The notes beneath the pieces are model-generated. The model saw only the letters and a list, made by a program, of their open reading frames with translations. It was not told the DNA's origin and did not search any database. From a virus (Duplodnaviria; Heunggongvirae; Uroviricota; Caudoviricetes): DNA of 64,000 nt. Location: the IMG/VR virus record IMGVR_UViG_2671180747_000017; one strand, given 5' to 3'. This document shows positions 1,643-40,184 of the stretch, one piece after another; within the stretch, counting starts at the first letter, position 1, and each line of letters starts with the position of its first letter. Both the position numbers and the translations under genes were made by a program.

Positions 1643-1675
1643 TTCACGATATTCCATTAATACCATTTCCTGATG

Positions 1676-1700: not shown

Positions 1701-1711
1701 ATGGAGTCTGT

Positions 1712-4700
1712 ATGGCCTATTCAGAGGAACAGCGTCCTGAGGCGCAACTCGGTAACCAGAATCGTAACAGCCTGAACATTCAGCAACCCGGCGAAACTGA
1801 CAGCTATGAAGCATTTTTCTCTGATCCGAATCGCTGGAAGGATAACAGTACGTCGTTCAGCCTGGGCGATGTATTGCCAACAATGGGTAAAGGTTTCGCC
1901 CAGTCCGTCCGGGGAACAGGGGAAATGGCCCGTGGACTCGGTGATGCGATGATTCAGAGCCCGGTAAAAACAGGGGCGCGTATTTTAAATGAGTTCAGCC
2001 GTATGGGGCTGCCGGGTGTCGCAACTGTGCAGGATATTTTTGCCGGTGGCAGCAGGGGGGCTGATGAGGTCATCGATACCCTGCCTGATGGCAAAAACGC
2101 GGTTACTGATACTGTCGGTAAAGGTCTGAAGGCAACCGGTAAGGCTGTCAGTGATGGTGCTGAAGCCACTGATGAATGGCTGACCGGTAAGATGTCGCCG
2201 GGTGCAGTTCGTGCGCTGAATACGCCGATGACCGAAGGCTATGATGATTCTGCGGTCTGGGTGGCGAAGGGTGTAAACCTGATTGGTGCGCTTGTACCTG
2301 ATATGGTTGCTGGCGGTGTGGCTAAAAAGGTGGGTGATGTCACACTGCGAAAAATGCTGACCGCCGGGCTGGAGAAAAAATACATCGCGGCAGGGATGCA
2401 GCCGGAAAGAGCCACGGCACTGGCAGCAGAAGCTGTCGATAAAAAAATGCCGGATTTATTCCAGGCGGGCCTGATCACCCATTCCACAGCCAGTGCACAG
2501 GGGCAGAGTGCAATGGCGGCAGCAGATGCTGTTCTTAATGCGGATTACTCTGAGCTGGCGCAGTCACCGAAATTTCAGCAGACGTTTTTGTCCATTGACG
2601 CCGACCCGCAGCACGCACAGCTTACTGATCGCCAGAAAATGGATCTGGCAAAAGAGCGTGTTGCCGATGAGGTGCGCGCGCAGCTGGCAACCGATCCTGA
2701 ATTGCTGGCTGTGAATGCCATGGCGGCAAAACTGGGTGACGCACAACTGTTTAATCTGGTGACACGAGGCACAGCGAAGACCGTTAAAAGCGGCATTGTC
2801 AGAAATGCCACGGAACAGGGGGCGATTAATGCGGCGCAGGGCGGCTATTCACGCTATCAGGAAAACACGGCATTGCGTGAGACCGCCGGAATGGATGTGT
2901 CACCGTGGGAGGGCGTGGCTGACGCAACGATCGAAGGTGCAGCCTTTGGTGCTGCGATGGGGGCTCCATCCGGTGCGGTTGCCGGATATCGTGGCAGACG
3001 TCAGGCCGCAGAAGAAGCAGCCATGCGTGATGCTGAAACCGTGCAGCAGGACGACGCAGCCCCGCAACCAGAATCTGTTGATCCGGTGGCGCAGCATCGT
3101 GAATCCATGCAGGGGATGAATCGCGAGCAGCTTCTGGAGCAGTATGCTGATGCGGATATGGCAACAGAGGGGGACGCATCCGCAGCTCATCGCCGGGAAG
3201 CTGCCAGCCAGTTGTTGAATGAACTGGACGAACAGGCGAAGCGACAGGCTGTGATGAATGAGCTGAAGGCGAAGCCGCGTTCTGAACTGCTTGAGGAATA
3301 CCGCAGACTCAGCCAGAAAGAGGAGCGCACCGAGACTGAAGAACAACAGTTTCAGGCAATACGAGAAGTCATTCGCCCACAACAGGAAGTGACGCCGGAA
3401 GCACAGTCACAGCCTGAAAATGCGGAGGATGGTAACGGGAGCATTTACCCGACGGTGCGGTTCCGGGACCCGAATGAAGTCCGCATTGAAATTAACGGGA
3501 ATGGTGCGTCCAGACCAGCGGAACGCATTGAAAAGGTGCGCCCGGACAACCGTTATTTCACGGATGAGAAAAGCGCCATGGGGAGTGATGTTTTCCGTAA
3601 TGCCGCCGCCACCGGCCTGAAACCGTCCGTAGTGAAGAAAGGCGAGACTCAATATGCTGTTGAAATGGATAATCCTGCGTTCTCTGAAGATGTGGCAACG
3701 GAAACCATTAACACCCTGGCTGACGGAGAGCGTATTGCTGATGCTGACCCGATGGAGCAGCCCGCGTTCATGCGTGACCCACGATTCCGTGGTTTCACGG
3801 GGGATGATACGGAGGTACAGGCCCGCCTTGCCCGTGGCAACGTGCCGACGGCAGAGGAGCTTGTACGTTCACAGATGGCTGAAGGTGATGCCGGTCCGAC
3901 AGCACAGGAGTTAACTGAGCGTCCACGCCTGCCCGCTCCCGGCGATATTCATCCCGGACAGGGATATCCGTTACCGGGAGAGGTGGCGCGTACGCCGGAT
4001 GAGAATCAGGCAGGACGTGGTGGTCGTTTTACCACAACCGGTGAGGTTAAGGGCCAGAGTTTCCAGAAAGGACAAGCTCTGGCACCGGAAAACGCCGCTG
4101 GTCGCCAGGGGGAAACACTCGAGGGTGAAATGGTTCGTCGTGGTCTGCCGTCACCGGATGCGCAGAACGCGACAGCACCGGTACGTGAAGGGCTACCGGC
4201 TCCGGACATTACACACAATGTCCGTATGCCTCAGCCTGATCAGCTTCCCCGAACTGTTCGTAACTCATTGCCTGAGCTCGCACAGCAGGCAGAAGTACGT
4301 CGACAGGCCGGAGGAAATCGTGACATCCCGCAGCCTGAGACAATCGCACCTGAATCTGAAACAACAGTCGCTACTGACAGGGAAGCTACCGTGCGCGGAG
4401 GTGAAGTCAGGGGCAAAAAAATTGAAGACTTTGGTGAAGAAATTAAGGGCGCGGCAAAACACCGTTATGCACAGCTTGCTGAAACACTGGGTAAAACGCT
4501 GGAAGACAGGGATTATGTCACGCAACCGCTGAGCAAACTGTTCCCGAAACCGGACTACGCAAAACTGGCGAGCGAAGGGGCTGATGCTGACACCCTGGCA
4601 ATGATAGCGCTGTATCGTAGCGATATTCCGGTGAAGACGAAACACAATACGGCAGGCTGGGGGGAGAGCGTAAAAAAAGTACGACACAGTGTATCGGAAA

Positions 4701-7700
4701 TGCTGAACGGAACGGTCAGCGCGAAACGCCTCGCAGAATGGATGGAAGGCAGAATGCCCTCCCGTTACGCGGACACCTGGCAACTGTTACGCACTCTGCC
4801 ACCCTCACAGATGGACAAGGCTTCTGCTTATCGGGTGGTATCGGGTGTGTATCAGGCGGCAGGAGGGAAGCGTTACGATCCGCCACAGAAACTTTATTCA
4901 CTGCGCAATAAGGACAATAAGGGGAGTAACCTCTTTTTCTCGGAAAGCAGGGATGAATTACTGGCAAAGGCGAAAGTCTGGTTTGCAGAGCAGGAGGAAA
5001 AATCACAGGCGAAAGGTGATGAAAAAACAGCACCGTCTCCGGATGACAAAATCCGCTTTGACGTTTACCGGAATACCCGCAGTGGCGATATTTTTATCGC
5101 TTACGGTAAAAACAAAATGCGGGTGAGAGGTGGCTTTAAGTCAGCCAGTGATGCGCGTAAGTACATTGATTTACATCGTGATGAGCTTGTTCGTCATGTG
5201 AAGGAGATGCGGGAGATTTCGCGTGAGGAGCAGCGCAACGCCACCAACCGCGACCGTACCGGACCAGAACGCCGCAAGGGGGATGTTTCACCGGAGCAGT
5301 TCAGTGATGCGTTTGGTTTTCGTGGTGTGCAGTTTGGTAATTATGTGGAAAGTCCGCGTCGTCAGGCTGATTTGAACCGGGCTTATGACTCGCTGCATGA
5401 CCTGGCTGACGTGCTGAATGTACCGACAAAAGCGCTTTCTCTGAACGGTCGTCTTGGGCTTGCTTTTGGTGCCCGTGGTAAGGGTAAGGCGGCGGCACAC
5501 TATGAGTCAGGTGAGGTGGCAATCAACCTGACAAAAGGTAACGGACCGGGTGCGCTGGCGCACGAATGGTTCCATTCTCTGGATAATTATTTTGGTCGTT
5601 ATGACGTTTCCAGTGACGGGAAAATTACGTCAGGTGGCGACTTTATGACGGAAGCACAGCGTGTCAGGCGCATATTTAAAGACGGCAGGTATGTTGATGC
5701 TGAATATCCGGTACGTCAGGAGGTTTACGACGCTTTTAAAGGTGTGATTCAGGCCATTAAAAACAGTGACATGCCGCGTCGTTCAGCGCTTCTTGATGAG
5801 GTGCGCTCAAAACCGTACTGGTCAACGGATGTTGAAATGGCGGCACGTGCCTTTGAGCGTTATGTTCAGGATAAGGCGCGTATGGCTGGCGTGGAGAATG
5901 ATTATCTGGTCAATATCCGTAAGGCACCTGAGCACAACACAGATAACACCTACGCTTATCCGACGAATGCGGAACTGGATGGCGGTATTCGTGAGGCATT
6001 CGATCACCTGTTCCGCACCCTGAAAACCCGTGAGACGGACAAGGGCGTTGCGTTTTATTCCCGTAAGGGCATGACCCGCACACCTGAAGGTAATCTCATT
6101 TCGGATGTTAACCGTAGTGCGGAAGCCAAAGGCAGCCCGGTCCCGCAGGTTGAAGCGGTTGCCCGTGGCGTGATGAGCGGCATTAAGGACAGTGACCTGA
6201 CGGTCCGTGTGGTGAAGTCACAGAAAGAGGCTGAAGCGCTGGCGGGTGAATCGTTCGACGGTTACGGCAGGGTGCACGCATTCTATCGTCCGGATAAACG
6301 AGAAATTGTCCTGGTGGCGGATAACATCCCTGACGGGCAGACCGTACGCGAGAAGTTGCGTCACGAGATTATCCACCATGCCATGGAGCATGTTGTCACG
6401 CCAGCGGAATATCAGACGATTATCAAAACCGTGCTGAAAACCCGCGACAGTGATAACGCCACCATCCGTGAAGCCTGGCGTAAGGTTGATGCGTCCTATG
6501 GTAAGGAATCACCGGAAGTACAGGCGGGTGAATTTCTGGCACATATGGCGGAGAAACAGCCGAATAAATTCGTGGCGGCATGGGAGCGTGTTGTTGCCCT
6601 GGTCAAAGGGGTACTGCGTCGTACGGGGTTACTGAAGCCGACGGAACTGAACGATATCAGACTTGTTCGCGAGACCATCCGTACGTTAGGCCAGCGTGTG
6701 CGGGAAGGTTACACGCCGCGTGAGGATGGCGTGGGCGCATCGTCTCAGTACTCCCGTAGTGGTAAGCCTGATCCGTTCAAAGTGCCGGAAGGTGAGGGTG
6801 AACGTTATCGCGATGACCTTGCCAGAATGATGAAATCTCTGCGTACCACAGATTTAACGGTAAACATCGGGCGTACGCCGCCGGTATTGCGTCACCTTGG
6901 TGCACCGGATTTGCCGCTGGTTATTTCCCGCGATACTGTGCGGAAGGCCACCAATGGTGTGAAACATGTGGTGCCGATGGATGTTATCGAGAGACTACCG
7001 GAACTGATGCACGATCCGGATGCAATTTACCGCTCAGCGACAGAAAGAAATGCGGTTGTGATGCTGCTTGATGCCGTGGATAAAAATGGTGATCCGGTAG
7101 TGTCTGCGGTGCATATGAAGGCAACCCAAAAACTTCTGGAAGTTAACCGTATTGCTTCTGTTTACGGAACGGAAAACGGGAAAAAACTGAAGAGTATGGA
7201 AACGGCTGGCTTAACATTATACAGGAGAGAAAAACTAAACCCTGATGGTTCTCTGTACAGAGGGCTCCAATTGCCCAAAGATGAGCACTCCCGTCAGGGT
7301 TCTGCGGATAAAATACTCTATCCTGAAGATATTCGCAAGGGGCCGTATTACTCCCGTACCAGCAGTCTGACACCGGAAGAGACAATTGCATCGCGTTTTG
7401 TGCGCCAGATGCAGGATAAATTCCAGGTGCTGAAAGCTGTTCAGGAGAATATCCGTAAAACTGGTGGAAAAATAGACGACAGTAACAACGCTTATATGGC
7501 GGAAGAACTCTTCCACGGGAAGGCGGAAAACGACCTGAACGTGATGAAGGAGCGCTACGTTCAGCCACTGGCTAAATTACTGGCGGACTACAAAATTGCG
7601 CAGGCCGATCTGGATGAGTACCTCTACGCCCGTCACGCGCCGGAACGTAACGCGCATATCGCGAAAATCAACCCGAAAATGCCGGACGGCGGTTCGGGGA

Positions 7701-10093
7701 TGACCAACGCGGAGGCGGCGGAAATCATGCAGCGTGTACGTAACAGCGGCAAACAGGCACAGTATGACCGTCTGGCAGGGATTGTTGACGATATGCTGGC
7801 CCGTCGCCGTGAGCTTATCCGTGAGGCAGGACTGGAAGAGAGCGGCGTGGTGGATGCCTGGCAGAAAGCCTACCGTTACTACGTTCCCCTGAAAGGGCAG
7901 GATGTTGACGGTGTGGTGTCACTGCCACGTACAGGCAAGGGATTCACCATCGGCGGGCGTGAAAGTAAGCAGGCCATGGGGCGCGCATCCCGCGCACAGT
8001 CTCCTTCCACTCAGGCGATACAGGATTTGAGCGAATCACTGATCCGCAATCGCAAAAATGAAGTGGGTAACGCCTTCCTGAAACTGGTACAGGATAATCC
8101 CGACAAGGATTACTGGCAGGTATTCACCGATGACAGACCGGATACCATGCGGACGATTGCAGAGCGCAAGGACAAGGAAACTGGTGAAACCATTCGCGAA
8201 GTTGTCGAACGCCCTGTACCGATGGCAATGATGGCAGACCGGTACTTCACCACCAAAAAGAACGGCAAAACGTACTACATCAAACTCCATGATCCGCGCC
8301 TGATGCGTGCGATGAAGAATATGGGACCGGAAACCAGTAACGCCGTAATCCGCACGCTGGGGAAAGTTAACCGCTTCCTGGCAACGGTGAACACGTCGTA
8401 TAACCCGGAATTCCTGGTCAGTAACTTCATCCGTGACGTACAGACGGCGGTGATGAACCTGAAGGCGGAGCAGGGAAGGAGCGACGGCAAACTGAAAGGG
8501 CTGGATAACTTATCCGCACTGGCTGTGGTGAAAGACAGTCGGTCTGCCATGTCTGCCGTATACGCCAGTCTGCGTGGTAAAACCCTCACGGGCAACGGTG
8601 CGCAGTGGCAGAAGGTGTGGAAAGAGTTTGTTGAGGACGGAGGTAAAACCGGCTGGTTTAACATGGGTGACCTTGAAGGCCAGCAGAAGGAAATGGATCG
8701 CCTTGTATCGCTGGCGAAGGGAGGATGGAAAGGCCAGAGTATCGGTGCATGGAATTCGTTCCTTAACCTTGTCGAGGATGCCAACGGGGCGGTTGAAAAC
8801 GCTCTGCGTCTTTCTGCCTATAAACACGCCCGTGATGCCGGTTTGTCACGCCAGCAGGCGGCGTCTCTTGCCAAAAACATGACGGTGAACTTTAACCGTC
8901 GTGGTGAGCAGGGGGCGCTGATGAACTCGCTGTACATGTTCGCCAACGCCAGTATTCAGGGAACGGCAAATCTGGTGAGAACGCTCGGACATCTTAATGG
9001 TGAGGGACCTTTACTGGAGCGCCTTCGCTGGAAGAATCTGAATGTTCCGCAGAAAATCGCGCTTGCCGCTGTGGGAGCGGGTTATCTGCTTGGCTCGCTT
9101 AACCGCAGCGTGGCGGGTGAGGATGATGACGGGGTTAACTGGTATGACAAAGTACCGTCTCATGTGAAAGAGCGTAACCTCGTCATTATGAAATCGGTGT
9201 TCGGGGGCAAGGCCGGAGAGTACTGGAGTATTCCTCTGCCTTACGGGTACAACGTTTTCTTCCTGCTTGGTCACACAGCCGAAGGGGTGGCAGCGGGCGA
9301 CCTGACCGCTTCACGTGCTGCCGGTAATGTTGTTGGTGGTGTGCTTGGGGCATTCAGTCCTGTGGGCAGTGAAACGTCGGAAACACTGTCCGGGGCATTG
9401 CTGAAAAATGCAGCGCCGACCATTCTGCGTCCGTTTGCGAACCTTGCCATGAATGAAAACTTCATGGGGGCGCAGATTTACCAGGAGAACATGCCGTTTG
9501 GTACACCAAAACCTGACAGCCAGCTGGGAAGACGTTCAACGCCAGAAGCGTACAAGGCGTTTGCATCCTGGCTGAATGCGTTCTCAGGTGGCAGCCAGTA
9601 CCGTCCCGGCGCGGTGGATATCACACCGGAATCGCTGAAATTCTGGATTGACTATATCTCCGGAGGGACAGGGCGCTTCATTTCCAAAACCACGGATGCG
9701 GCGGTGAAATCGCTGAATGGTATTGATATACCGGAACAGCAGGTGCCCTTCCTGGGGAAAATTTCGGGGGAGGTGATGCCGTATGCAGACCAGCAGAAGA
9801 TGTACGACCGGATGACAGAGATTGCGCAGTATCACGCAGAGCTGAAGAGTCTGACCGGTGCAGAAAGAACGGCGTTCATTGACGAGAACAACGGAAAATT
9901 GTCGATGAACGGGCTTATGCAGGATACCCGGAAGAGACTGAAGGATTTGCGTAAACAGCGTGATGCCATTTATGCCGACAGTTCTCTCAGTCTGGCGCAG
10001 CAGGCGGCGATAGTGAAATCGGTAGAGCGGGATATGAAGGTTGCCGTGGATCGCTTTAACCGCGAGTACAACAAAAAAGTGGGAGTGGATTAA
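1712..10093 (+). CDS. Giant phage protein (about 2793 aa) with HExxH zincin-like metallopeptidase motif; polyvalent/virion-associated type protein (function inferred)
   Basis: Single uninterrupted 8.4-kb ORF; ATG at 1712 chosen because the track start 1673 lies inside the upstream terminator hairpin; motif GALAHEWFHSLDNYFG; long Ala/Glu/Gln low-complexity stretches. Confidence 0.8.
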   Translation: MAYSEEQRPEAQLGNQNRNSLNIQQPGETDSYEAFFSDPNRWKDNSTSFSLGDVLPTMGKGFAQSVRGTGEMARGLGDAMIQSPVKTGARILNEFSRMGLPGVATVQDIFAGGSRGADEVIDTLPDGKNAVTDTVGKGLKATGKAVSDGAEATDEWLTGKMSPGAVRALNTPMTEGYDDSAVWVAKGVNLIGALVPDMVAGGVAKKVGDVTLRKMLTAGLEKKYIAAGMQPERATALAAEAVDKKMPDLFQAGLITHSTASAQGQSAMAAADAVLNADYSELAQSPKFQQTFLSIDADPQHAQLTDRQKMDLAKERVADEVRAQLATDPELLAVNAMAAKLGDAQLFNLVTRGTAKTVKSGIVRNATEQGAINAAQGGYSRYQENTALRETAGMDVSPWEGVADATIEGAAFGAAMGAPSGAVAGYRGRRQAAEEAAMRDAETVQQDDAAPQPESVDPVAQHRESMQGMNREQLLEQYADADMATEGDASAAHRREAASQLLNELDEQAKRQAVMNELKAKPRSELLEEYRRLSQKEERTETEEQQFQAIREVIRPQQEVTPEAQSQPENAEDGNGSIYPTVRFRDPNEVRIEINGNGASRPAERIEKVRPDNRYFTDEKSAMGSDVFRNAAATGLKPSVVKKGETQYAVEMDNPAFSEDVATETINTLADGERIADADPMEQPAFMRDPRFRGFTGDDTEVQARLARGNVPTAEELVRSQMAEGDAGPTAQELTERPRLPAPGDIHPGQGYPLPGEVARTPDENQAGRGGRFTTTGEVKGQSFQKGQALAPENAAGRQGETLEGEMVRRGLPSPDAQNATAPVREGLPAPDITHNVRMPQPDQLPRTVRNSLPELAQQAEVRRQAGGNRDIPQPETIAPESETTVATDREATVRGGEVRGKKIEDFGEEIKGAAKHRYAQLAETLGKTLEDRDYVTQPLSKLFPKPDYAKLASEGADADTLAMIALYRSDIPVKTKHNTAGWGESVKKVRHSVSEMLNGTVSAKRLAEWMEGRMPSRYADTWQLLRTLPPSQMDKASAYRVVSGVYQAAGGKRYDPPQKLYSLRNKDNKGSNLFFSESRDELLAKAKVWFAEQEEKSQAKGDEKTAPSPDDKIRFDVYRNTRSGDIFIAYGKNKMRVRGGFKSASDARKYIDLHRDELVRHVKEMREISREEQRNATNRDRTGPERRKGDVSPEQFSDAFGFRGVQFGNYVESPRRQADLNRAYDSLHDLADVLNVPTKALSLNGRLGLAFGARGKGKAAAHYESGEVAINLTKGNGPGALAHEWFHSLDNYFGRYDVSSDGKITSGGDFMTEAQRVRRIFKDGRYVDAEYPVRQEVYDAFKGVIQAIKNSDMPRRSALLDEVRSKPYWSTDVEMAARAFERYVQDKARMAGVENDYLVNIRKAPEHNTDNTYAYPTNAELDGGIREAFDHLFRTLKTRETDKGVAFYSRKGMTRTPEGNLISDVNRSAEAKGSPVPQVEAVARGVMSGIKDSDLTVRVVKSQKEAEALAGESFDGYGRVHAFYRPDKREIVLVADNIPDGQTVREKLRHEIIHHAMEHVVTPAEYQTIIKTVLKTRDSDNATIREAWRKVDASYGKESPEVQAGEFLAHMAEKQPNKFVAAWERVVALVKGVLRRTGLLKPTELNDIRLVRETIRTLGQRVREGYTPREDGVGASSQYSRSGKPDPFKVPEGEGERYRDDLARMMKSLRTTDLTVNIGRTPPVLRHLGAPDLPLVISRDTVRKATNGVKHVVPMDVIERLPELMHDPDAIYRSATERNAVVMLLDAVDKNGDPVVSAVHMKATQKLLEVNRIASVYGTENGKKLKSMETAGLTLYRREKLNPDGSLYRGLQLPKDEHSRQGSADKILYPEDIRKGPYYSRTSSLTPEETIASRFVRQMQDKFQVLKAVQENIRKTGGKIDDSNNAYMAEELFHGKAENDLNVMKERYVQPLAKLLADYKIAQADLDEYLYARHAPERNAHIAKINPKMPDGGSGMTNAEAAEIMQRVRNSGKQAQYDRLAGIVDDMLARRRELIREAGLEESGVVDAWQKAYRYYVPLKGQDVDGVVSLPRTGKGFTIGGRESKQAMGRASRAQSPSTQAIQDLSESLIRNRKNEVGNAFLKLVQDNPDKDYWQVFTDDRPDTMRTIAERKDKETGETIREVVERPVPMAMMADRYFTTKKNGKTYYIKLHDPRLMRAMKNMGPETSNAVIRTLGKVNRFLATVNTSYNPEFLVSNFIRDVQTAVMNLKAEQGRSDGKLKGLDNLSALAVVKDSRSAMSAVYASLRGKTLTGNGAQWQKVWKEFVEDGGKTGWFNMGDLEGQQKEMDRLVSLAKGGWKGQSIGAWNSFLNLVEDANGAVENALRLSAYKHARDAGLSRQQAASLAKNMTVNFNRRGEQGALMNSLYMFANASIQGTANLVRTLGHLNGEGPLLERLRWKNLNVPQKIALAAVGAGYLLGSLNRSVAGEDDDGVNWYDKVPSHVKERNLVIMKSVFGGKAGEYWSIPLPYGYNVFFLLGHTAEGVAAGDLTASRAAGNVVGGVLGAFSPVGSETSETLSGALLKNAAPTILRPFANLAMNENFMGAQIYQENMPFGTPKPDSQLGRRSTPEAYKAFASWLNAFSGGSQYRPGAVDITPESLKFWIDYISGGTGRFISKTTDAAVKSLNGIDIPEQQVPFLGKISGEVMPYADQQKMYDRMTEIAQYHAELKSLTGAERTAFIDENNGKLSMNGLMQDTRKRLKDLRKQRDAIYADSSLSLAQQAAIVKSVERDMKVAVDRFNREYNKKVGVD

Positions 10094-17595: not shown

Positions 17596-18622
17596 TTATA
17601 TTTTTTCGATCTCGACCAGATTAGTGTGCTGCGGGTTTCCCTTCGCCAGTGGTGAAGGGCGCAGAGTGGTTAGCGTATTCACACAGCCGCCATGGTCGAT
17701 TTTATCGCCAGACATATTGGCCTCGTGCCAGGCTCCCTGGCCCATAGCGCTAACTCCAGGGAGAATACGTGGTGTTACTTTGGCTGGTAGCCGAACTTCG
17801 CCACGATGGTTAAACACCCGCACCATATCGCCGTTGGCAATCCCACGTTTCTGCGCATCTATAGGGTTGATCCACACCTCCTGACGGCAGGCAGCCTTCA
17901 GGAGATCAATATTGCCGTAGGTCGAGTGAGTACGGGATTTGTAATGGAAACCAAACAGTTGCAGTGGGAAGGTTCTACGTTCAGGGGAGTCCCAGCCTTC
18001 AAAGGTAGAGGCATAAACTGGCAGTGGGCTTATCACTTCATCTTTTTCCAGTTCCCAGGTACGGGCAATTTCCGCCAGCTTGCTGGAATAAATTTCAATC
18101 TTACCGGAAGGTGTTTTAAGTGGATTTGCCTCGGGGTCGTCACGAAATGCTTTGTAGGCGACAAAATGACCATTGGGATCTTTACGCTTATAGATACCCA
18201 TTTTTTTCAGTTCGTCGTAAGACGGTAACGCCGGATCTTTGGCAAGCATTTTGGCGTACAGATGTTGTAACCATTGTTCCTGCGTGCGACCTTCAGTGAA
18301 CTTTTGATAGACGTCAGGTCCAAGACGTTTCGCGACTTCACTCAGGATCCAGTAAATCGGTTTGCGTTCGAATTTTTCGCTGGTGACAGGCTGGAGGAAA
18401 ATGAGATATCCCATGTTACCGGCGTAGTCGTTAGGAATAATATCTTCCTGCTCAACGGTCATCAGGTCTGGCAGCAGAATGTCGGCATATTTTGCCGATG
18501 AGGTCATAAAGTTTTCGATGACCACAATCATTTCGCATTTCGATTCGTCCTGCAGAATTTCATGCGTTTTGTTGATGTCAGAATGCTGATTAACGAGGGT
18601 ATTTCCCGCGTAGTTCCAGATG
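17596..18622 (-). pseudogene. ynfE: ynfE C-terminal fragment (distal part of the disrupted gene)
   Basis: Paralogous to ynfF C-terminal half; the ynfE-derived reading frame begins at the junction (...SIWNYAGNTL) and the track ORF N-terminus is island-derived. Confidence 0.85.
18612..18622. repeat. attL core direct repeat AGTTCCAGATG
   Basis: Identical 11-mer at both ynfE breakpoints. Confidence 0.8.
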
Positions 18623-18687
18623 GACTCCATTGTCAGACGGATGGATGGACTTGAAGTAGTTGACTCAATGCTACTTAAGGTCCTGAT

Positions 18688-20271
18688 ATGACTGACATTA
18701 ACCATGATAATACTGTATATCCATCCAGTTCTTTCTCTGGGTCTCCCTATCTGTATCAGCAAGTCTGCACCTCAAGTCCTGACACAAGGCTGACACAAAT
18801 CAATCTACTCAGCGTAGCTAAGCCTCAGTTAGTCCGTAGAGCCAATGGTCGATATACTATCCGCTTCAGACTCAAGGGACAGACCATCCCGTTTCTTTCA
18901 GTATCGACCCGAAGCACAGACAGGAGAGTAGCCACAATGCGTCAGAGAGAGCTTGCAGCCACAGCTAAGTCCTTCATGTTGGATAGGCCTGATGTCTCGC
19001 TACAGGAGCTTACGGACCACCTCCGGTCTATGGCTGAGCAGTTCCTGACAGACGCCAGTGATGACTACTGGAATGGACTTGAGGTCGCTACTCTGGTGGA
19101 CGAGAAGTCCAACCTGAAGGAGCTAGCCGCTACGCAAGCCTTGAGTCTGGACCAGCAGAAGGGCATAAGGTTAGCGCTTGAAGTCCTGACCGCAGCACAG
19201 CAGAGGGTAGACACTGGTGATGCCTCTGGTCTGATTAAGCTGATTGATGATAATAACCATACTGATTACTCAACTATAGGCGACTCTACGTCAATTCTGA
19301 AGAATGAGCAGGGGGATAGACCAGCAGTTTTCACACAGGAGCGTCAGCCATCTGTGGTTTTTTCAAGCCTAGTGTCCTCGCTGCTGGCTGAGAAGGTCCA
19401 GACCCTGAAGTCCTCCAGCTACAAGGACCTGTCGTCCTCACTGAATACCGTCTCTCGGTTCTTACCTGAAGACATGGACCTGATGTCCCGCTCTGAGTGG
19501 CTGGCTGTCAGGGACTCCATGCTGGCTGCTGAGGTGAGACCATCGACAATCAACAAGCTGCTGACTAAGGCGAAGATGTGTCTTGATTATGGCCTGATGA
19601 ATGGGCAACTTGAGGGCCGCAACCCTATTGAACGGATGAAGCTGACCAAGGATATCGACTCCAAGCGCAGAGCGTTCACAGACGAGGAGCTGGAGAGACT
19701 TCTGGTCCGTGTTGAGTCTGAGTATCAGTTCACACGACACACGGCTCACACGACCTCTGAGGCCCGTAGATGGGCGTCTCTGGTGTCTGTGGTCACTGGC
19801 GCGAGGTCTGCTGAAGTCTGCCACCTGACTAAACGTGACATTGTCACCTTAGACAACGGTTTAACCTGCATCGACATCAATGAAGATGGGGACGGTAAGT
19901 CTGTGAAGAACAAACATTCAGTCCGACTTGTACCGCTGACCGATGGGGCCTGTGGGTTCGACCTGAAGTCCTTCCTTGAATGGGTAGACACGCAGCCTGA
20001 CGACGGCGGTCCTCTCTTCGGGATGACTCCGAGCGCCTACTCTAGCTGGTTTAACTCTAGGGTCCTGACTGAGGCACTGGGAGACGCTGAGAACGTTTCT
20101 CTCCATAGTCTGAGGCATTGGCTGGCGACCCGAATGAAAGAGCGTGGAGTCAATCTGGTGGACGCTCAGGGCATCTTAGGCCATAGCAGTCAGTCAATTA
20201 CGTATGACCTGTACGGGAAAGGACACGCTGTTGGTAGGCTGGCTGAGGTGCTGAAGACAGCTTTACTTTAA
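18688..20271 (+). CDS. int: Tyrosine recombinase / integrase of the island
   Basis: C-terminal HSLRHWLATR and LGHSSQSITYDLYGKGH (H-x-x-R and catalytic Tyr); N-terminal GRYTIRFRLKG arm-binding-like segment; true start uncertain because arm-type repeats lie at 18780-18798. Confidence 0.85.
   Translation: MTDINHDNTVYPSSSFSGSPYLYQQVCTSSPDTRLTQINLLSVAKPQLVRRANGRYTIRFRLKGQTIPFLSVSTRSTDRRVATMRQRELAATAKSFMLDRPDVSLQELTDHLRSMAEQFLTDASDDYWNGLEVATLVDEKSNLKELAATQALSLDQQKGIRLALEVLTAAQQRVDTGDASGLIKLIDDNNHTDYSTIGDSTSILKNEQGDRPAVFTQERQPSVVFSSLVSSLLAEKVQTLKSSSYKDLSSSLNTVSRFLPEDMDLMSRSEWLAVRDSMLAAEVRPSTINKLLTKAKMCLDYGLMNGQLEGRNPIERMKLTKDIDSKRRAFTDEELERLLVRVESEYQFTRHTAHTTSEARRWASLVSVVTGARSAEVCHLTKRDIVTLDNGLTCIDINEDGDGKSVKNKHSVRLVPLTDGACGFDLKSFLEWVDTQPDDGGPLFGMTPSAYSSWFNSRVLTEALGDAENVSLHSLRHWLATRMKERGVNLVDAQGILGHSSQSITYDLYGKGHAVGRLAEVLKTALL
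18780..18798. repeat. Two direct TGACACAA arm-type repeats, 11-bp spacing, left end of island
   Basis: TGACACAAGGCTGACACAA read directly; same motif triplicated at the right end. Confidence 0.7.
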
Positions 20272-20348: not shown

Positions 20349-20376
20349 GGAGGGTGATAATAATCATAATCCCTCC
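20349..20376 (+). terminator. Hairpin downstream of integrase (GGAGGG, 16-nt loop, CCCTCC), no clear U-tract
   Basis: Read directly about 80 bp after the int stop. Confidence 0.25.
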
Positions 20377-20483
20377 TGACTATAGGCCCACTGGTTCGCC
20401 TTCGGCTGTCAGACTCTAAGTCTGTATGTGGTCTTATTTAAACTGGTTCCCTAACTCCAGTACTCCAAATTCCTATGGTCTCC

Positions 20484-20690
20484 TCTTGACATTCCTGTTT
20501 AACTGTGAGTCGCCTCTGGTCTCTCTTTATATATACTTCCTTAATTCCTGAGGCGTCTTTAGTCCTTGACATCCAGTCCAGCCTGTGAGTCACATCCGGT
20601 CCTCCCTCTTTATATATACTTCCTTAATTCCTAGGGTCGCCTTAATCCTTGACATCCAGTCCAGCCTGTGAGTCACATCCTGTCGCGCTA
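20484..20690. repeat. Three tandem direct repeats, period about 80-83 bp, each with TTGACAT...CTGTGAGTC; the first two also carry CTCTTTATATATACTTCCTTAATTCCT
   Basis: TTGACA at 20486, 20566, 20649; CTGTGAGTC at 20503, 20583, 20666; 27-mer at 20523 and 20606. Confidence 0.75.
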
Positions 20691-20713
20691 CTGTATGCAT
20701 CACCAGTGATGGA

Positions 20714-20736
20714 CTTGATTATCACTATAGGGGAAC
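20714..20736 (+). promoter_or_regulatory. T7-group phage RNA polymerase promoter-like site, copy 1 (predicted +1 G at 20730)
   Basis: TCACTATAGGG matches T7 consensus positions -8 to +3 exactly; upstream specificity region (ATTA) differs from T7/T3/K11/SP6; 35 bp upstream of an ORF with AGGAG RBS. Confidence 0.6.
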
Positions 20737-20764
20737 CAACTAATTCAACTACAGGAGATACTCT

Positions 20765-21133: not shown

Positions 21134-21142
21134 TTACGGACC

Positions 21143-21165
21143 CTAAACTATCACTATAGGGAGAC
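21143..21165 (+). promoter_or_regulatory. T7-group phage RNA polymerase promoter-like site, copy 2 (predicted +1 G at 21159)
   Basis: TCACTATAGGGAGA matches T7 consensus positions -8 to +6 (14/14); shares TATCACTATAGGG with copy 1; same strand. Confidence 0.65.
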
Positions 21166-21422
21166 CAGCCTCCGCCTCTGAGTCTGATGCGTCAGAACAT
21201 GCGAGCATCTGGTCAACCGACATTAAGTATCTCTCCTAAGTAATCAAGGCATGTGACCGCCTCTGTCAGACCTCGTGTATCGACCTCCAGCTCGTTAGCG
21301 TTCTCGTGTCTTCATTATGATTTGGGTCTATCACCGCTCACCATCTGGAAGTCCTTACAGCTCGTCCTGACATGCGGTCTCACCTTTATATGGCTGGAAG
21401 AGACCTCCTCTGTCAGACGCTA

Positions 21423-21470
21423 TCTAACCAACCCAGAAAACGGGTTTGTTAAAAAGATTAACATGGGTCT
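21423..21470. repeat. Direct repeat copy 1, about 47 bp (TCTAACCAACCCAGAAAACGGGTTTGTTAAAAAGATTAACATGGGTCT)
   Basis: Near-identical second copy at 21619-21665; contains short hairpin AACCC-AGAAAAC-GGGTT. Confidence 0.7.
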
Positions 21471-21618: not shown

Positions 21619-21665
21619 TCTAACCAACCCAGAAAACGGGTTTGTTAAAAAAGTTAACATGGTCT
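21619..21665. repeat. Direct repeat copy 2, about 47 bp
   Basis: About 45 of 48 positions identical to copy 1; 196 bp spacing. Confidence 0.7.
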
Positions 21666-21793
21666 TCACACGACCTCATTACCTCAAGTCTTTCTGTATG
21701 TCTCCTGTTGCCTGTGAGTCTCCCTATCGTTGGGGGCTTGAGTAGGCTTTCAGGGTGTGACTTCAGGAGGCATAACAAAAGGAGTACAACGAT

Positions 21794-22817: not shown

Positions 22818-23309
22818 ATGATGTTCAACAACAACAACTGGAAGCTGTCAGTCACCGACATCAACCTTTATGAAAACACTGTGAGTCTGGACGGTCAGTC
22901 CTATCCGTTGTCGCTCGCTATCAAGACCCTGATTCCGGGCTACCTGTCAGGACTGCCGTCTACCAGCCGTGAGTCTATGGAGTTACTGGAAGCTCTGGCT
23001 GAAGCTGGTGTAGCTATTGGCAACTTCTTCAGTAATGACCTGATGACCGCCTATGGTCGCCGCCAGCAGAACAAGCGAGCTGAGGCTGAGCGTATCGCTA
23101 AAGAGCAGCGCATTCAGGCCGAGCGCATGCGTGAAGAGAACATGACTGATGCAGAGTGGCAGAAAGAGCTACAGCGCCGCGAACAGGTCAAAGCTGAACG
23201 CCGGACCTATGGTGAGAACCTCCGCAGTGCTACCCATTCCGCTGGTCGCTCCCGTGCCGCTATTGTCGCTGACCTTGAGTCAGGCGGTAACTGGCTGGAC
23301 AGCTTATAA
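22818..23309 (+). CDS. 163-aa protein with basic coiled-coil C-terminal half, unknown function
   Basis: ORF track; GAGGAG RBS; Arg/Glu/Gln-rich heptad-like segment AEAERIAKEQRIQAERMREE. Confidence 0.6.
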   Translation: MMFNNNNWKLSVTDINLYENTVSLDGQSYPLSLAIKTLIPGYLSGLPSTSRESMELLEALAEAGVAIGNFFSNDLMTAYGRRQQNKRAEAERIAKEQRIQAERMREENMTDAEWQKELQRREQVKAERRTYGENLRSATHSAGRSRAAIVADLESGGNWLDSL

Positions 23310-23393
23310 GACACACAGTCCCTGACCCGATGTTAGGGACTCCTCAGTTTTGAGGACTCACAGTATTTAAACTAATTTAGGAGATTGATTATT

Positions 23394-24380
23394 ATGACGA
23401 TTAAAGACGCTTTCCAGTTTGGCATTGAGCCAGTACGCATCACCGATACCGACAACATTCAGGTCAATGAAGGTCTGCCGACTAACGCTGACCCGCAGGT
23501 CTACGCCCTCCAGTTAGCTAAGACGGTTAAGGCTATGCTGAACGGTGTACTTAAGGACGCTCAAGAGAACATCCCGTTCCCTGTAGAAGTCCTGCCGACC
23601 CGTAACAGCTTACCGACCCCAATCATTGCCCACACTCTGACTGACCGCTCTGTGGTCGTTCCTGTCCGTGGTGGCAAGCGACCTGAAGTCGTGACCGTTC
23701 CGTCTGGACAAGAAATCGTGGTCGAACCAATCGAGCAGGCTATTCTCATCTCTGAGCAGACCAAGCTCTGGGACGCCAAGTCATCCACCGGATTCACTCA
23801 GGGCACACTTCAGCAGGACGCTATGAACATCTGTGAGAATGTGGTCCGTACCATCAACGCTCGCATGGTCGACGTTCTGGAATCCTCTAAGCTGCTGAAG
23901 ACCGTAGAGCTTCCTGTCCTGACTGGTAGCCTGACCGCTAAGGCAGACGCTATCATGGACGCTCTGTATGAGAACACAGAGTCTTCTTTCGGTTCTGAGG
24001 TGTCTGACTACGGTATTATCGCTCATGAGAGCCAACTGAAAGCACTGTCCCGTCTGGCTGCTAAGCAAGGCTTCTCCGGTGAAGACGCTATCGTCGATAT
24101 GCTGGGAACAGACATCGCCTACTACAACGGTGAAGACAAGGGTGTATTCATGCTGGCTAAACGCTTCACGGCTCTGAGCTTCGGTTGCTTCCGTCACGAT
24201 GGCGAGAATATTACGGTCGTCCTTTCACGTGATGGCGACTCTCAGTCCCACGACTTGGAAATCCTCGGTAAAGTGTTCGTTGTCGCTGAAGCTGCTACGA
24301 CCATCAAGATGGGCACTGGCTCAGCTACTGCCGTCCTGCCTGTAGTCAAACGCCTGAAGTTCACCAAGACCGAAGCGTAA
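23394..24380 (+). CDS. 328-aa protein, unknown function (largest island cargo gene)
   Basis: ATG 23394 with TAGGAG RBS (track start 23385 is TTG); no motif I can assign. Confidence 0.65.
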   Translation: MTIKDAFQFGIEPVRITDTDNIQVNEGLPTNADPQVYALQLAKTVKAMLNGVLKDAQENIPFPVEVLPTRNSLPTPIIAHTLTDRSVVVPVRGGKRPEVVTVPSGQEIVVEPIEQAILISEQTKLWDAKSSTGFTQGTLQQDAMNICENVVRTINARMVDVLESSKLLKTVELPVLTGSLTAKADAIMDALYENTESSFGSEVSDYGIIAHESQLKALSRLAAKQGFSGEDAIVDMLGTDIAYYNGEDKGVFMLAKRFTALSFGCFRHDGENITVVLSRDGDSQSHDLEILGKVFVVAEAATTIKMGTGSATAVLPVVKRLKFTKTEA

Positions 24381-24385
24381 GACCA

Positions 24386-24625
24386 ATGGGTAAGAGCATT
24401 AGTAAAGGCTTCAGGTCCATCGCCAAGGGCCTGACAGGTGGTGGTGGGACTCAAGGTGGGGCTTCGGTCCCGCCTCCTGTAGCTCCTCCTGTAGCTCCTC
24501 CAGATGACGCTCAGCAAGCTGTAGTCGATACCCAAGGTCAGGAGACCGAGGGAGGTAAGACCATGAGCAGAGGTAAGTCTGGACTGAATATCAGCAGGAC
24601 TTCAGGTGGTGGCCTGTCACTGTGA
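24386..24625 (+). CDS. 79-aa Gly/Pro-rich basic protein
   Basis: ORF track; GGGGTQGGASVPPPVAPPVAPP low-complexity; follows 328-aa gene by 5 nt. Confidence 0.45.
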   Translation: MGKSISKGFRSIAKGLTGGGGTQGGASVPPPVAPPVAPPDDAQQAVVDTQGQETEGGKTMSRGKSGLNISRTSGGGLSL

Positions 24626-24863
24626 TTAAGACATCTATACAGCCTGTGGAGGGTGGACGATATCAAGCAACAATCTGGATGACACGCAGAGTCTATAAGC
24701 GGCTATGCTGGTCACTGGCTGAAGCTGAACAGTGGGTGAGACGTAAAGTGCCTACCGTTCAATCGTTCCAATCATCATGATAACTATGGTCTGGACCAAT
24801 GGTCTGGACCTTTGTTTTGTACTAGTTATCTAGTGCAGTAGTACAATAGACGAAGGAGGCTTT

Positions 24864-25019
24864 ATGTCTATGACTTCCGCAGACCTAAGGTCCCTCCTGA
24901 CTCTGGTCTATAAACTCGTGTTCCTCTCTGTGGGTCTCTATATGGTCCTCTCCGGTCGACTCGGTGTGAATGTATTCGACACTCTGTCTAAGGCTGTGGG
25001 TGGGCTTCTGGGGGCTTAG
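24864..25019 (+). CDS. 51-aa hydrophobic membrane peptide
   Basis: Strongest RBS in the island (GAAGGAGG, 6 nt before ATG); one predicted TM helix LLTLVYKLVFLSVGLYMVLSG; read by eye, not in ORF track. Confidence 0.5.
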   Translation: MSMTSADLRSLLTLVYKLVFLSVGLYMVLSGRLGVNVFDTLSKAVGGLLGA

Positions 25020-25169
25020 GTTTGGACTCACAGTGGGACCGATGGTTTCTGACAGAAAAATGTGAATGACCATCTAATACATTAAGCCAGCAGACTTCCC
25101 CCATAGCCCGCCTCAAGTCCAGACCGAGGCCACCGGGGGGCTGACCAGCCGTCTAGACATCCCGTCTAA

Positions 25170-25200
25170 TGACACAAGGCTGACACAAAGCCTGACACAA
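25170..25200. repeat. Three direct TGACACAA arm-type repeats (11-12 bp spacing), right end of island
   Basis: TGACACAAGGCTGACACAAAGCCTGACACAA read directly. Confidence 0.7.
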
Positions 25201-25257
25201 AGTCCTTGACTCAATGCAGGACCTCAGGCCTACTAAGGGTCCGCTTCAAGTCCTTGA

Positions 25258-25268
25258 AGTTCCAGATG
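25258..25268. repeat. attR core direct repeat AGTTCCAGATG
   Basis: Identical to 18612-18622. Confidence 0.8.
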
Positions 25269-26668
25269 AACTTAATGGGCACATCCAGTTTATCTTTGCC
25301 GCGGACGCCGTCGCGGATTGCCGTCATTTGCGGACCATGATCGATAGCATCTGTCCAGCTGAAGCAGGAGATTGACATTTTGACCGGATTATCCAGCACC
25401 GGCAGGCGTTCTATGGTAATGGTATAGGTCGATTCACGCGCGCCACTATTTCCGCCGCTGATGCCGACATTGCCCGTCAAAATAGGTAACATAGCAATAG
25501 CGCGTGCAGTCAGTTCGCCGTTTGCCTGGCGTTGCGGCCCCCAGCCCTGGCAGATATAAGCGGGTTTTGCTGTGCCAATTTCACGCGCCAGTTTGATGAT
25601 ACGGTCTACCGGGATACCGGTAATTTGCGAAGCCCACTGCGGCGTTTTCGCTGTGTTATCATCACCTTCACCAAGAATATAGGCTTTATAGTGACTATTT
25701 TTGGGTGCATCTGCGGGTAAGGTTTTTTCGTCATAGCCGACGCAGTATTTATCGAGAAAAGGTTGATCAACGAGATTTTCGTTAATCAATACCCAGGCAA
25801 TACCCGCAACCAGCGCGGCATCGGTGCCCGGGCGAATAGGGAGCCATTCATCTTCACGACCAGCAGCCGTATCGGTATATCGCGGATCGATAGCAATCAT
25901 TTTGGCGTTCGATTTCTCGCGCGCTTTTTCAAGAAGATAAGTGATGCCACCGCCGCTCATGCGGGTTTCTGCCGGGTTGTTACCAAACATCACGACCAGC
26001 TTGCTGTTTTCAATATCCGTGGTGCTGTTGCCATCATTACTGCCGTAGGTGTAGGGCATGGCACAGGAAATTTGCGCGGTGCTGTAGGAGCCATACTGAT
26101 TGAGTGAACCGCCGTAGCAGTTCATCAGGCGTTTGACCGCCGAGGCTGATGGCGAAGAGCGGGTCATATTGCCGCCAACGATCCCCGAAGAGTACTGAAT
26201 ATATACAGCCTCATTGCCATATTGTTCGACGGTTTTCTTCAGGCTACTGGCGATAGTATCCAGGGCTTCATCCCAGCTAATCCGTTCGAATTTGCCTTCG
26301 CCGCGTTTGCCCACGCGTTTCATTGGGTAATTCAAGCGATCGGGATGATTAATACGCCGACGGATGGATCGACCACGCAAACAGGCGCGTACTTGATGAT
26401 TGCCATACTCGTCGCTGCCGGTGTTGTCAGTTTCCACCCAGGTGACTTCATTATCTTTAACATGTAGACGAAGTGCACAGCGGCTACCACAGTTGACGGA
26501 ACAGGCACCCCAGATCACTTTTTCGCTGGCCTGTTGTACCGCTGCCGCTGCACTGCGCAGGGTGAACGGTAAAGAAAAACCGCCTGCAGCCAGCGCCAGA
26601 GAACCTATCGCGGTTGATTTAACGAGTGTTCTGCGGCTGATGCCCACCATTCGGTCATTTTTGGACAT
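25258..26668 (-). pseudogene. ynfE: ynfE N-terminal fragment (promoter-proximal part of the disrupted gene)
   Basis: Tat signal GISRRTLVKSTAIG, CSVNCGSRC motif; colinear with ynfF to ...DVPIKFIWN, then island-derived residues and stop. Confidence 0.85.
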
Positions 26669-39238: not shown

Positions 39239-40184
39239 ACGCCCACTGGTTATAAACACACAGCTTGCGATGAAGATTGGCTTAAATGAAGCCATTGTGT
39301 TGCAGCAGTTGCATTACTGGTTGAGAGATACCAATTCCGGTATGGAATGTGATGGTGTTCGCTGGATTTACAACACAACGGAACAATGGCTGGAACAGTT
39401 CCCATTCTGGTCAGAGTCAACGTTAAAGCGCGCGTTTGCAAGTCTGAAAACGCTGGGGCTTTTGCGTTGTGAAAAGCTCAATAAATCAAAGCGCGATATG
39501 ACCAATTTCTACACGATCAACTACGGGAGCGAGCTTTTAGATGATGGCAAATTGAGCGAATCCATCGGTTCAAAATGCGCCGCTCCATCAGGTCAAAATG
39601 ACACGATGGAAGAGGTCAAAATGAAACGCTCCATTGGTTCAAAACGATCCAATGTCATCGGGTCAAAATGGCCTGATGATCTTACAGAGAATACAACAGA
39701 GATTACTACAGAGAATAAAAACACTTTTCGTCCGGAAGCTTCGCAACCGGACCCGCAGACGACTGAACAGGATTTTTTAACCCGGAACTCCGACGCGGTT
39801 GTGTTTAGTGCGAAAAAACGCCAGTGGGGTAGCAGGGAGGATTTGGCGTGTGCGCAGTGGATCTGGGGGCGGATCGTGGGCCTCTACGAACAGGCAGCCA
39901 GTGATGATGGCGAGATCATGAGACCAAAAGAGCCTAACTGGACTGTCTGGGCCAATGACGTGCGCACAATGCGGATGCTGGATGGCAGAAGCCACAGACA
40001 AATTTGCGAAATGTTTGGTCGGGTTCAGCGAGATCCATTCTGGGTAAAAAACATCATGAGCCCGTCAAAGCTCCGCGAAAAATGGGACGAACTGGTCATC
40101 CGCCTGGGACGTTCACCTGTACAGCGTTGTGTTAATCATATTTCTGAACCGGATACAGAAATTCCGCCTGGTTTCAGAGGATAA
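39219..40184 (+). CDS. Putative replication initiation protein (YdaU/O-like)
   Basis: Position after immunity genes; N-terminal HTH-like LAMKIGLNEAIVLQQLHYWL; start 39219 vs 39270 uncertain. Confidence 0.55.
   Translation: MSLLFAERPLVINTQLAMKIGLNEAIVLQQLHYWLRDTNSGMECDGVRWIYNTTEQWLEQFPFWSESTLKRAFASLKTLGLLRCEKLNKSKRDMTNFYTINYGSELLDDGKLSESIGSKCAAPSGQNDTMEEVKMKRSIGSKRSNVIGSKWPDDLTENTTEITTENKNTFRPEASQPDPQTTEQDFLTRNSDAVVFSAKKRQWGSREDLACAQWIWGRIVGLYEQAASDDGEIMRPKEPNWTVWANDVRTMRMLDGRSHRQICEMFGRVQRDPFWVKNIMSPSKLREKWDELVIRLGRSPVQRCVNHISEPDTEIPPGFRG

Follow-up and report, generated by a model that had tools for sequence, protein, structure and literature searches.

Bacteriophage T7 is among the best-studied viruses, yet its gene 19.5 has no assigned function. 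The gene is non-essential and its function unexplained; mutants that lack both it and the neighbouring 'M-hairpin' lyse late and form small plaques, the gp19.5 substitutions A24D and E38G arise on removal of the holin or of gp16 muralytic activity, and the gene has also been proposed to help generate the hairpin for concatemer processing (PMC2680503, PMC8365609). The T7 product (MFRLLLNLLRHRVTYRFLVVLCAALGYASLTGDLSSLESVVCSILTCSD) is 49 aa long with one hydrophobic helix, and its ribosome-binding site (RBS), AAGGGAGG, has an AT-loop hairpin just upstream. By tblastn, gene 19.5 was found in 827 phage records, with lengths of 47–57 aa in the 8 phages aligned; in T7 the gene runs up to 39538, ahead of a terminal repeat whose first position is 39778, and the E. 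coli phage phiYIO1-1 is arranged alike. The window analyzed here is a 64,000-nt stretch of E. coli chromosome (IMG/VR record IMGVR_UViG_2671180747_000017), in which a 6,646-bp island is inserted in ynfE, as seen by comparison with the intact K-12 gene. The last gene of this island, ORF51 (24864–25019, + strand), is a positional and architectural counterpart of gene 19.5 and not a member of its family. A first-pass annotation, made from the sequence alone, had proposed a holin-like or toxic membrane peptide and had overlooked that ORF51 is part of a region mimicking a T7-like phage genome at its right end.

ORF51 and its resemblance to T7 gene 19.5

ORF51 starts with ATG at 24864, ends with TAG at 25017–25019 and encodes the 51-aa single-pass membrane peptide MSMTSADLRSLLTLVYKLVFLSVGLYMVLSGRLGVNVFDTLSKAVGGLLGA. 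Its length was exactly 51 codons in 12 of 12 related loci compared (11 distinct sequences), and frame and length were unchanged among 12 related islands at 75–80% nucleotide identity. Nei-Gojobori dN/dS ratios were typically about 0.13–0.2, with values of 0.07–0.25 for the majority of divergent pairs (dS up to ~1.0) and of 0.3–0.43 for pairs including locus L018, and the variable sites fell on codon positions 1, 2 and 3 as 15/13/32. A search of 5.8 billion protein clusters returned 42 relatives at 78–100% identity, several of them with in-frame indels of 3–4 residues and a few singletons frameshifted at a 3′ G-run; a hidden Markov model (HMM) scan of 1.84 billion representative proteins returned the peptide's own family only. 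Of 5,426 complete E. coli genomes, 146 (~2.7%) had the ORF together with the block downstream of it, in each case as a single copy, always on the chromosome and never annotated, and PGAP places no annotation at the site in 146–154 complete E. coli genomes. From these patterns ORF51 is almost certainly a real gene under purifying selection, and conservation of the peptide, which the first-pass annotation had named as a point to check, was confirmed by the constant length, the selection and the relatives found.

The Shine-Dalgarno (SD) sequence of ORF51, GAAGGAGG (24852–24859, + strand), is separated from the ATG by 4 nt (CTTT) and not by the 6 nt first reported. Its duplex energy with the anti-SD sequence was −11.7 kcal/mol, the top value among 11 island starts and narrowly ahead of the 55-aa ORF (−11.3 kcal/mol), in agreement with the earlier description of the strongest RBS in the island. 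Among the loci compared, AAGGAGG or AGGAGG was found at this SD in 10 of 12 of type A and 6 of 7 of type B. The window sequence has Met at codons 1 and 3; because L018 has GTG at codon 1 and then Thr at codon 3, we place the start at codon 1 and do not consider the Met1/Met3 pair a conserved dual start. The single hydrophobic helix claimed for the 51-aa peptide was borne out as well: the Kyte-Doolittle maximum over 19 residues was 2.09 (residues 11–29), and AlphaFold2 (AF2) with 14 family members gave a helix at residues 5–30, a break at G31-R-L-G34 and an amphipathic helix at residues 35–49, with a mean pLDDT of 86.7. The tail (residues 32–51) is amphipathic/hydrophobic and carries charges at R32, D39 and K43 only. 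Within the C-terminal helix the residues F38 D39 T40 L41 S42 are invariant in the family, which suggests a specific partner for the peptide. No match above threshold was obtained with Pfam, PHROGs or PADLOC (the sole match was DUF6131, E = 0.047), and tblastn against 50,697 phage records gave no T7-like match, the sole match being a spurious one to a Caulobacter phage polymerase gene.

The likeness to gp19.5 lies in position and architecture. Both genes are the last ORF before the concatemer junction or its mimic, always so for ORF51; both products are some 50 aa long and consist of a single hydrophobic helix and a short tail with an acidic residue; and both genes have a consensus SD of the AAGGAGG type, preceded closely by an AT-loop hairpin. 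The peptides also have in common a Y-K/R pair within the helix and, at position 38/39, an acidic residue. The two differ in that the predicted cut site lies 53 nt from ORF51 and the junction ~240 nt from the gene in T7, and in that ORF51 has no phiOR-type promoter directly upstream. In addition, the N-terminus of gp19.5 is strongly basic and its acidic tail holds two invariant cysteines; neither feature is seen in ORF51, which has no cysteine. Membership of ORF51 in the gp19.5 family was tested by homology in four ways and found unsupported (the values are given below with the functional reading).

Two side observations concern the DNA of the ORF itself. The frameshifted database variants (24970–25065, with the G-run at 25000–25016) are mostly singletons and read into a +1 ORF (..RFGLTVGPMVSDRKM); they may reflect sequencing errors or slippage. 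The DNA of codons 21–27 (CTCTCTGTGGGTCTCTATAT, 24924–24943) is like a terminal-repeat right-boundary motif at 18731–18750, with a third copy at 21708–21727 (repeat family D12); within ORF51 this likeness could be chance or a relic.

T7-type promoters and genome-end mimics in the island

Two sequences resembling promoters of the T7 group were found on the + strand of the island. The first, GGACTTGATTATCACTATAGGGGAACC (20711–20737), was recovered in a repeat search as TTATCACTATAGGGGAA near 20721, includes ..ATCACTATAGGGGAA and is present on the + strand of all related islands; the second, ACCCTAAACTATCACTATAGGGAGACC (21140–21166), contains the exact 15-mer ATCACTATAGGGAGA and was recovered in the same search as AACTATCACTATAGGGAGACC (21146–21168). 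Both match CACTATAGGGAGA, the core of the T7-group promoter. Across the islands checked, from Escherichia, Shigella, Leclercia, Citrobacter, Enterobacter and Buttiauxella, there were 2–4 such promoters per island in both types, all on the gene strand and often paired with differing specificity regions at −8 to −12 (CCCTCACTATAGGGA and CTATCACTATAGGGA). The promoter at 21140 would drive rightward transcription towards ORF51.

When the whole island was compared with the phage collection by blastn, one match was obtained, of 32 identical bases, in phiYIO1-1. It links window positions 20353–20384, just past the integrase gene, with phage positions 40046–40077 in inverted orientation, and in the phage it corresponds to a hairpin between phiOR and gene 19.5. 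The phiYIO1-1 promoter upstream of gene 19.5 (phiOR) reads TTAACTATCACTATAGGGA and is of the same type as the island's: the 21140 promoter is the same as phiOR from −12 to +3, and the second type of specificity region (CTATCACTATAGGGA) is that of phiOR. The putative helpers are T7-like virulent coliphages with promoters of type CTATCACTATAGGG, similar to phiYIO1-1, itself a candidate.

Downstream of ORF51, positions 25040–25130 (+ strand) form a mimic of a T7-family concatemer junction, covering its packaging/cut site and the first part of the terminal repeat and aligning both to T7 39755–39830 and to the end of the phiYIO1-1 record joined to its start. With the cut marked by a slash, the phiYIO1-1 genome end ..CGATGAGTTTTGGACCAAAAGTTTGAGACCACA/TCTCACAG..CCCCATAGG..AAGTCCAGACC aligns with ..CGATGGTTTCTGACAGAAAAATGTGAATGACCA/TCTAATAC..TTCCCCCATAGCC..AAGTCCAGACC in the window. 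The T7 junction ..AAAAATCTGAGTGACTA/TCTCACAG..TTCCCCCATAGGG aligns too, and its 24-nt spacing from the cut site to TTCCCCCATAG (25097–25107 in the island) is identical to that of the island. Terminase is predicted to cut between 25072 and 25073 (..GACCA/TCTAATAC..), 53 nt beyond the ORF51 stop. The junction block is the sole stretch common to type A and type B islands 3′ of the peptide genes, and it is kept where the flanks differ. Near the other end of the island, beyond attP, TCTCTGGGTCTCCCTATCTGTATCAG (18734–18759, + strand) mimics the right boundary of a terminal repeat and aligns to phiYIO1-1 185–215 and to the T7 terminal repeat where it ends. It includes, at 18749–18756, ATCTGTAT, which resembles a class II pause signal, and the match to the phage right boundary includes ATCTGT; ATCTGTT is a pause signal for T7 RNA polymerase (RNAP). 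In the excised form, attP would fall within a ~320-bp 'terminal repeat'. Judged by these sequences, the island is probably a satellite of T7-like phages that would be transcribed by the helper polymerase and cut by terminase at the predicted site; no T7-type satellite was described in the literature searched, and one may be described elsewhere.

The island is bounded by copies of the att core AGTTCCAGATG (attL 18612–18622, attR 25258–25268), a duplication seen against K-12 ynfE; the same island is annotated in E. coli UMNK88, which matches window 24600–25250 at 99.4% identity. The ORF51 stop is 238 nt from the attR core, in line with the original placement of the ORF at the right end of the island adjoining attR, and no ynfE island retrieved had another gene between ORF51 and attR. 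All ORFs of the island are on the + strand: a tyrosine integrase, a 122-aa ORF, KilA-N, a 55-aa, a 163-aa and a 331-aa ORF, a 79-aa homolog of the T7 virion protein gp7.3 (24386–24625; phrog_1320, E = 1.8e-11; BLASTP against T7 gp7.3, E = 4e-6), a 52-aa ORF and ORF51. From the 331-aa gene to ORF51 the cargo varies, consisting either of gp7.3 with or without the 52-aa ORF or of a 54-aa ORF with a gp16 homolog and HNH; despite this variation it always includes a T7 ejection/adsorption protein (gp7.3 or gp16). The gp16 homolog of the sister islands (L022 259–4203, L026 2447–6391, L027 2444–6391 and L028 2498–6442) is full length, with 1314 aa and 40% identity over 99% of the length. Type B islands, which have another att site, carry in place of ORF51 a 25–26-aa TM (transmembrane) peptide similar to MDLHKVYLVVFLLKLGLVVWLWAIRR, composed of a TM helix and RR, with its stop codon inside the conserved junction block; its codon differences divide about evenly into synonymous and non-synonymous ones, and the substitutions are mostly hydrophobic-for-hydrophobic swaps.

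The 163-aa (22818–23309) and 331-aa (23385–24380) proteins form the core of both island types, with at least 70% identity across genera, and no relatives of either were found outside the island family in PDB and phage searches or with the T7 gp10 profile. The 331-aa protein was considered as a capsid protein, which was unsupported by PDB, phage and T7 gp10 profile matches alike and by an AF2 model with a pLDDT of 44. The order of secondary structure in that low-confidence model (long helix, beta hairpin, 28-residue helix, sheets) could fit a capsid fold. Portal, terminase, tail, polymerase and recognisable capsid genes were absent from the island by Pfam and PHROGs, and an Rfam scan of the island gave nothing real. 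The metagenome contigs L014–L016 join ORF51 via attP to the integrase and represent the excised form. Other contigs of ~6.6 kb were examined as free or packaged monomers and dismissed, since L017, L042 and L043 are ordinary chromosomal contigs and L014–L016 alone are attP forms. A scan of IMG/VR gave two long prophage-type contigs only.

Several further features of the region were recorded. The 52-aa ORF (24622–24780) overlaps the gp7.3 stop codon (GTGA), is present in the window, L001 and L004 and is cleanly absent from L003, L012, L014 and L017, a pattern resembling that of an optional insertion. Three tandem TGACACAARG repeats (25170–25205, + strand; family D9) have a 20-nt copy at 18780–18799, with 100% identical copies at both ends, and TTGACTCAATG is likewise found at both island ends (18654–18665 and 25208–25219); both are probably arm-type integrase (attP) or accessory-protein sites. 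The left-end repeats fall within the initial 110 nt of the integrase ORF as annotated (527 aa); the integrases of related islands have 444–530 aa, and the true start may be further downstream. Past the integrase gene and ahead of the first T7-type promoter, 20488–20690 holds three tandem ~82-bp units with CTTGACAT..CTGTGAGTC and TTTATATATAC, which could be host-polymerase promoters or an origin (compare T7 A1–A3). Upstream of the KilA-N gene are 44-nt direct repeats (21423–21466 and 21619–21662), 95% identical (TCTAACCAACCCAGAAAACGGGTTTGTTAAAAAGATTAACATGG) and each with a hairpin AACCC..GGGTT. The two halves of ynfE lie on the minus strand (25211–26668 and 17596–18762), the N-terminal half running 47 nt into the island before a stop, and the ynfE insertion already figures in the literature among the examples of 'regulated gene integrity' (PMC7192596). 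A very long ORF of 2806 aa (1673–10093, + strand) lies upstream of the ynf region.

Upstream signals and possible roles of ORF51

The first-pass annotation had pointed to two copies of GGTCTGGACC and an 8-bp inverted repeat upstream of ORF51 as signs of separate regulation. The copies are indeed present and exact (24788–24797 and 24801–24810). With up to one mismatch, GGTCTGGACC occurs 10 times in the window against 2.8 expected, a count reached in 0 of 100 shuffles, and the motif (reverse complement GTCCAGACC) is also found at 25116–25125, in the phage-end-like region, and at other places in the island. Near self-complementarity of the 10-mer lets the two copies pair into a stem, and with the AAT between them and the T-run TTTGTTTTGT they form an intrinsic-terminator-like hairpin in both the terminator scan and the RNA fold (24788–24820, + strand). 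The hairpin proper (24788–24810) begins 8 nt past the stop codon of the 52-aa ORF and has a 10-bp stem with 6 GC pairs and two G.U pairs, the 3-nt loop AAT, and a folding energy of −15.5 kcal/mol (z = −4.1). Stem, short loop, T-run and position after a stop codon are thus those of an intrinsic terminator, and a hairpin and U-run of other sequence occur in L014, L018, L017, L008 and type B islands. Given this pairing, we do not take the copies for regulatory direct repeats and read them as a putative attenuating terminator closing the upstream operon, not as protein-binding repeats.

The inverted repeat is part of an AT-rich palindromic element (24817–24846) with a single occurrence in the window, composed of outer arms TTGTACTA (24817–24824) and TAGTACAA (24839–24846) and an inner palindrome ACTAG-TTAT-CTAGT (24821–24834). 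The outer 8-bp arms are not conserved, and the minimum-energy fold uses the inner palindrome in their stead. TTTTGTACTAGTnATCTAGT is kept in L003, L014 and type B L006, L007, L011 and L013, and other islands have an unrelated AT-rich palindrome there; hence the repeat exists as described, and what is kept, in part of the islands only, is its inner palindrome. As for separate regulation, the terminator-like hairpin speaks for insulation from the upstream genes, and no conserved sigma-70 or T7-type promoter for ORF51 was found. Attenuated read-through is as likely as separate regulation.

Our preferred reading, held tentatively, is that ORF51 encodes a late inner-membrane peptide, transcribed by the RNAP of the helper, that tunes lysis or membrane integrity; by analogy with gp19.5, a role in lysis specifically is conceivable and rather doubtful. 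Helper RNAP would transcribe the island rightwards from the two T7-type promoters, and the hairpin of the two GGTCTGGACC copies would attenuate transcription just before ORF51. The read-through transcript would be translated very efficiently from the consensus SD, and the peptide would enter the inner membrane late in infection and modulate the timing of lysis or the integrity of the membrane, as suspected for T7 gp19.5. Helper-polymerase transcription, terminator read-through, membrane insertion and the effect on lysis are all steps that we infer. In T7, the terminator Tphi is located directly after the capsid gene and lowers expression of the genes downstream.

A number of results weigh against this reading. 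Of 11 variants, 3 have an incomplete or missing upstream hairpin: only one copy is present in L012 and in L023, and L004 is without the T-run. The sigma-70 scan gave no + strand site upstream of ORF51, with site counts at chance level, and a T7-type promoter was looked for directly upstream, between terminator and SD, and not found. No lysis genes, including endolysin and spanin, were detected in the island by Pfam and PHROGs, and Foldseek with the AF2 model against viral structures gave no match with E < 0.35, the 'holin' labels among the matches being not significant. In the comparison with gp19.5, hhalign gave P = 0.43 and no significant similarity, and reciprocal HMM scores were 0–1.5 bits, within the shuffle distribution (p about 0.2; 0.19). 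Global alignments reached p ~0.012–0.014, uncorrected, for phiYIO1-1 and P293 and gave nothing for 5 of 7 phages. The invariant residues of gp19.5 (R12, T14, F17, L18, E38, C42, C47) are not reproduced, as R12, E38, C42 and C47 are without counterparts in ORF51, and the charge bias is opposite, with a neutral N-terminus in ORF51, one basic residue before the helix and R32 after it. Moreover, the function of gp19.5 is itself unproven.

Among the rival explanations, a membrane-depolarising toxin, either an abortive-infection effector fired by phage RNAP at the T7-type promoters or a type I toxin stabilising the island, is unlikely. In its favour, ORF51 encodes a small hydrophobic peptide with a consensus SD, like Hok, TisB and Ldr, and is located at the end of a mobile element; the type B form is reduced to 25–26 aa with a TM helix and RR; T7-type promoters lie upstream on the same strand; and in the window a pairing ATAGAC/GUCUAU flanks SD and start codon and could sequester the SD. 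This pairing is, however, not conserved in relatives, the sole antisense promoter-like site (24870–24843) occurs at chance frequency with a −10 that is not conserved, and neither an Rfam antitoxin RNA nor a PADLOC hit was obtained. The packaging-site mimic and virion-protein homologs point to a satellite and not to a pure defence island, and the invariant F38 D39 T40 L41 S42 suggest a specific partner. An exclusion factor, an inner-membrane protein made from the integrated island that hinders T7-like phages, or the helper's competitors, in ejecting their DNA, would be in keeping with the insulation of ORF51 from the phage-promoter operon by the terminator, with its place at the island edge, like that of prophage accessory genes, and with a neighbouring cargo that is always an ejection/adsorption protein (gp7.3 or gp16) and fits a theme of entry at the cell envelope. 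We consider it quite unlikely, given that no sigma-70 promoter was detected or conserved upstream, that no similarity to known exclusion proteins was seen, and that the junction-side position is common to gene 19.5, which belongs to lytic phages without a lysogenic state.

A role in cis is less probable still, and we regard it as a long shot. Here the nascent peptide, translated from a transcript that a polymerase pausing at the junction has not yet released, would insert into the inner membrane and so tether the packaging site there, for ORF51 and gp19.5 alike, or the DNA or RNA of the ORF would be part of the packaging signal; the same proposal, improbable as a whole, also takes the island as an undescribed satellite of T7-like virulent coliphages, switched on by helper RNAP and packaged via the junction mimic. 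If true, it would explain why a fast-evolving TM peptide with a strong RBS is always last before the cut site in phages and satellites. The ORF adjoins the junction or its mimic in all islands and all T7-like phages examined, the type B stop codon lies within the junction block, a class II pause-like signal is found downstream, the SD is unusually strong, phage and island peptides share architecture at very low sequence conservation, and the DNA at 24924–24943 resembles the terminal-repeat right-boundary motif. Purifying selection on specific residues, the non-membrane tail included, nevertheless argues for a protein with specific contacts, synonymous sites vary freely, against a DNA or RNA signal in the ORF, and T7 RNAP outruns ribosomes, so that coupling would need pausing. 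Finally, a chance reading frame in the non-coding end of the island would agree with the missing PGAP annotation in 146–154 genomes and the lack of a Pfam or PHROG match. It is contradicted by dN/dS of ~0.15, the 15/13/32 distribution of variable sites, the kept frame and length and the in-frame indels, and is hardly credible.

Under the preferred reading of a late membrane peptide, as under that of a toxin, a peptide that tunes lysis or kills the cell would be a candidate means for the island to interfere with T7-like phages, which are widely used in phage therapy cocktails and biotechnology. ORF51 also gives a handle on gene 19.5, and the island, carried by ~2.7% of complete E. coli genomes, is a small chromosomal test system. 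Of a T7 genome it keeps hardly anything beyond promoters, genome-end sequences, one ejection/adsorption protein and a small membrane peptide at the place of gene 19.5, and the type B reduction to a bare 25-aa TM helix indicates which features matter at that position.

Comparison with known small membrane proteins and satellites

The suggestion of a holin-like or toxic peptide stands as a hypothesis, to which the gene-19.5 position gives indirect support by analogy. Like the holins lambda S and T7 gp17.5, ORF51 is a small membrane protein encoded with phage late functions, and Met1 and Met3 of the window sequence recall the dual-start motif of holins, although the pair is not conserved. It differs from holins in having a single TM helix and a tail that is not highly charged; no endolysin or spanin gene is nearby, as there would be in a lysis cassette, and neither Pfam nor PHROGs matched it to a holin. 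Type I toxins (Hok, TisB, Ldr, Ibs) are similar in size, hydrophobicity, strong SD and location on a mobile element; they differ from ORF51 by their antisense RNA, for which no gene, no conserved 5′ UTR (untranslated region) fold and no Rfam hit was found here. LidI of the Vibrio cholerae PLE satellite is reported to be a small TM peptide that acts on lysis timing during helper infection (Hays and Seed, eLife 2020). The helper in that case is ICP1 and the satellite is of another family, and what LidI affects is lysis inhibition, a phenomenon not known for T7. In likely function, and by analogy, ORF51 would be closest to gp19.5 and to LidI. It belongs to none of the families tested, lacking two defining features of holins, two of gp19.5 and one of type I toxins.

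The island as a whole resembles the satellites P4, PICI, cf-PICI, PLE and PICMI in its integrase, att sites, small size, copy of a helper packaging site and excised attP form, and in being without its own replication or virion gene set. Integrase, att sites and an excised form are thus present together, as is a packaging signal without most virion and replication genes. The markers of PICMI, the alpA regulator and insertion next to fis (PMC10803314), were not seen in the island. What sets the island apart from these satellites is its putative T7-like virulent helpers, its putative induction via helper RNAP promoters and its gp7.3/gp16 cargo. ORF51 is, in this comparison, a small membrane protein of a mobile element and as such of a known kind, whereas its placement next to the junction mimic in a putative satellite of T7 type is new.

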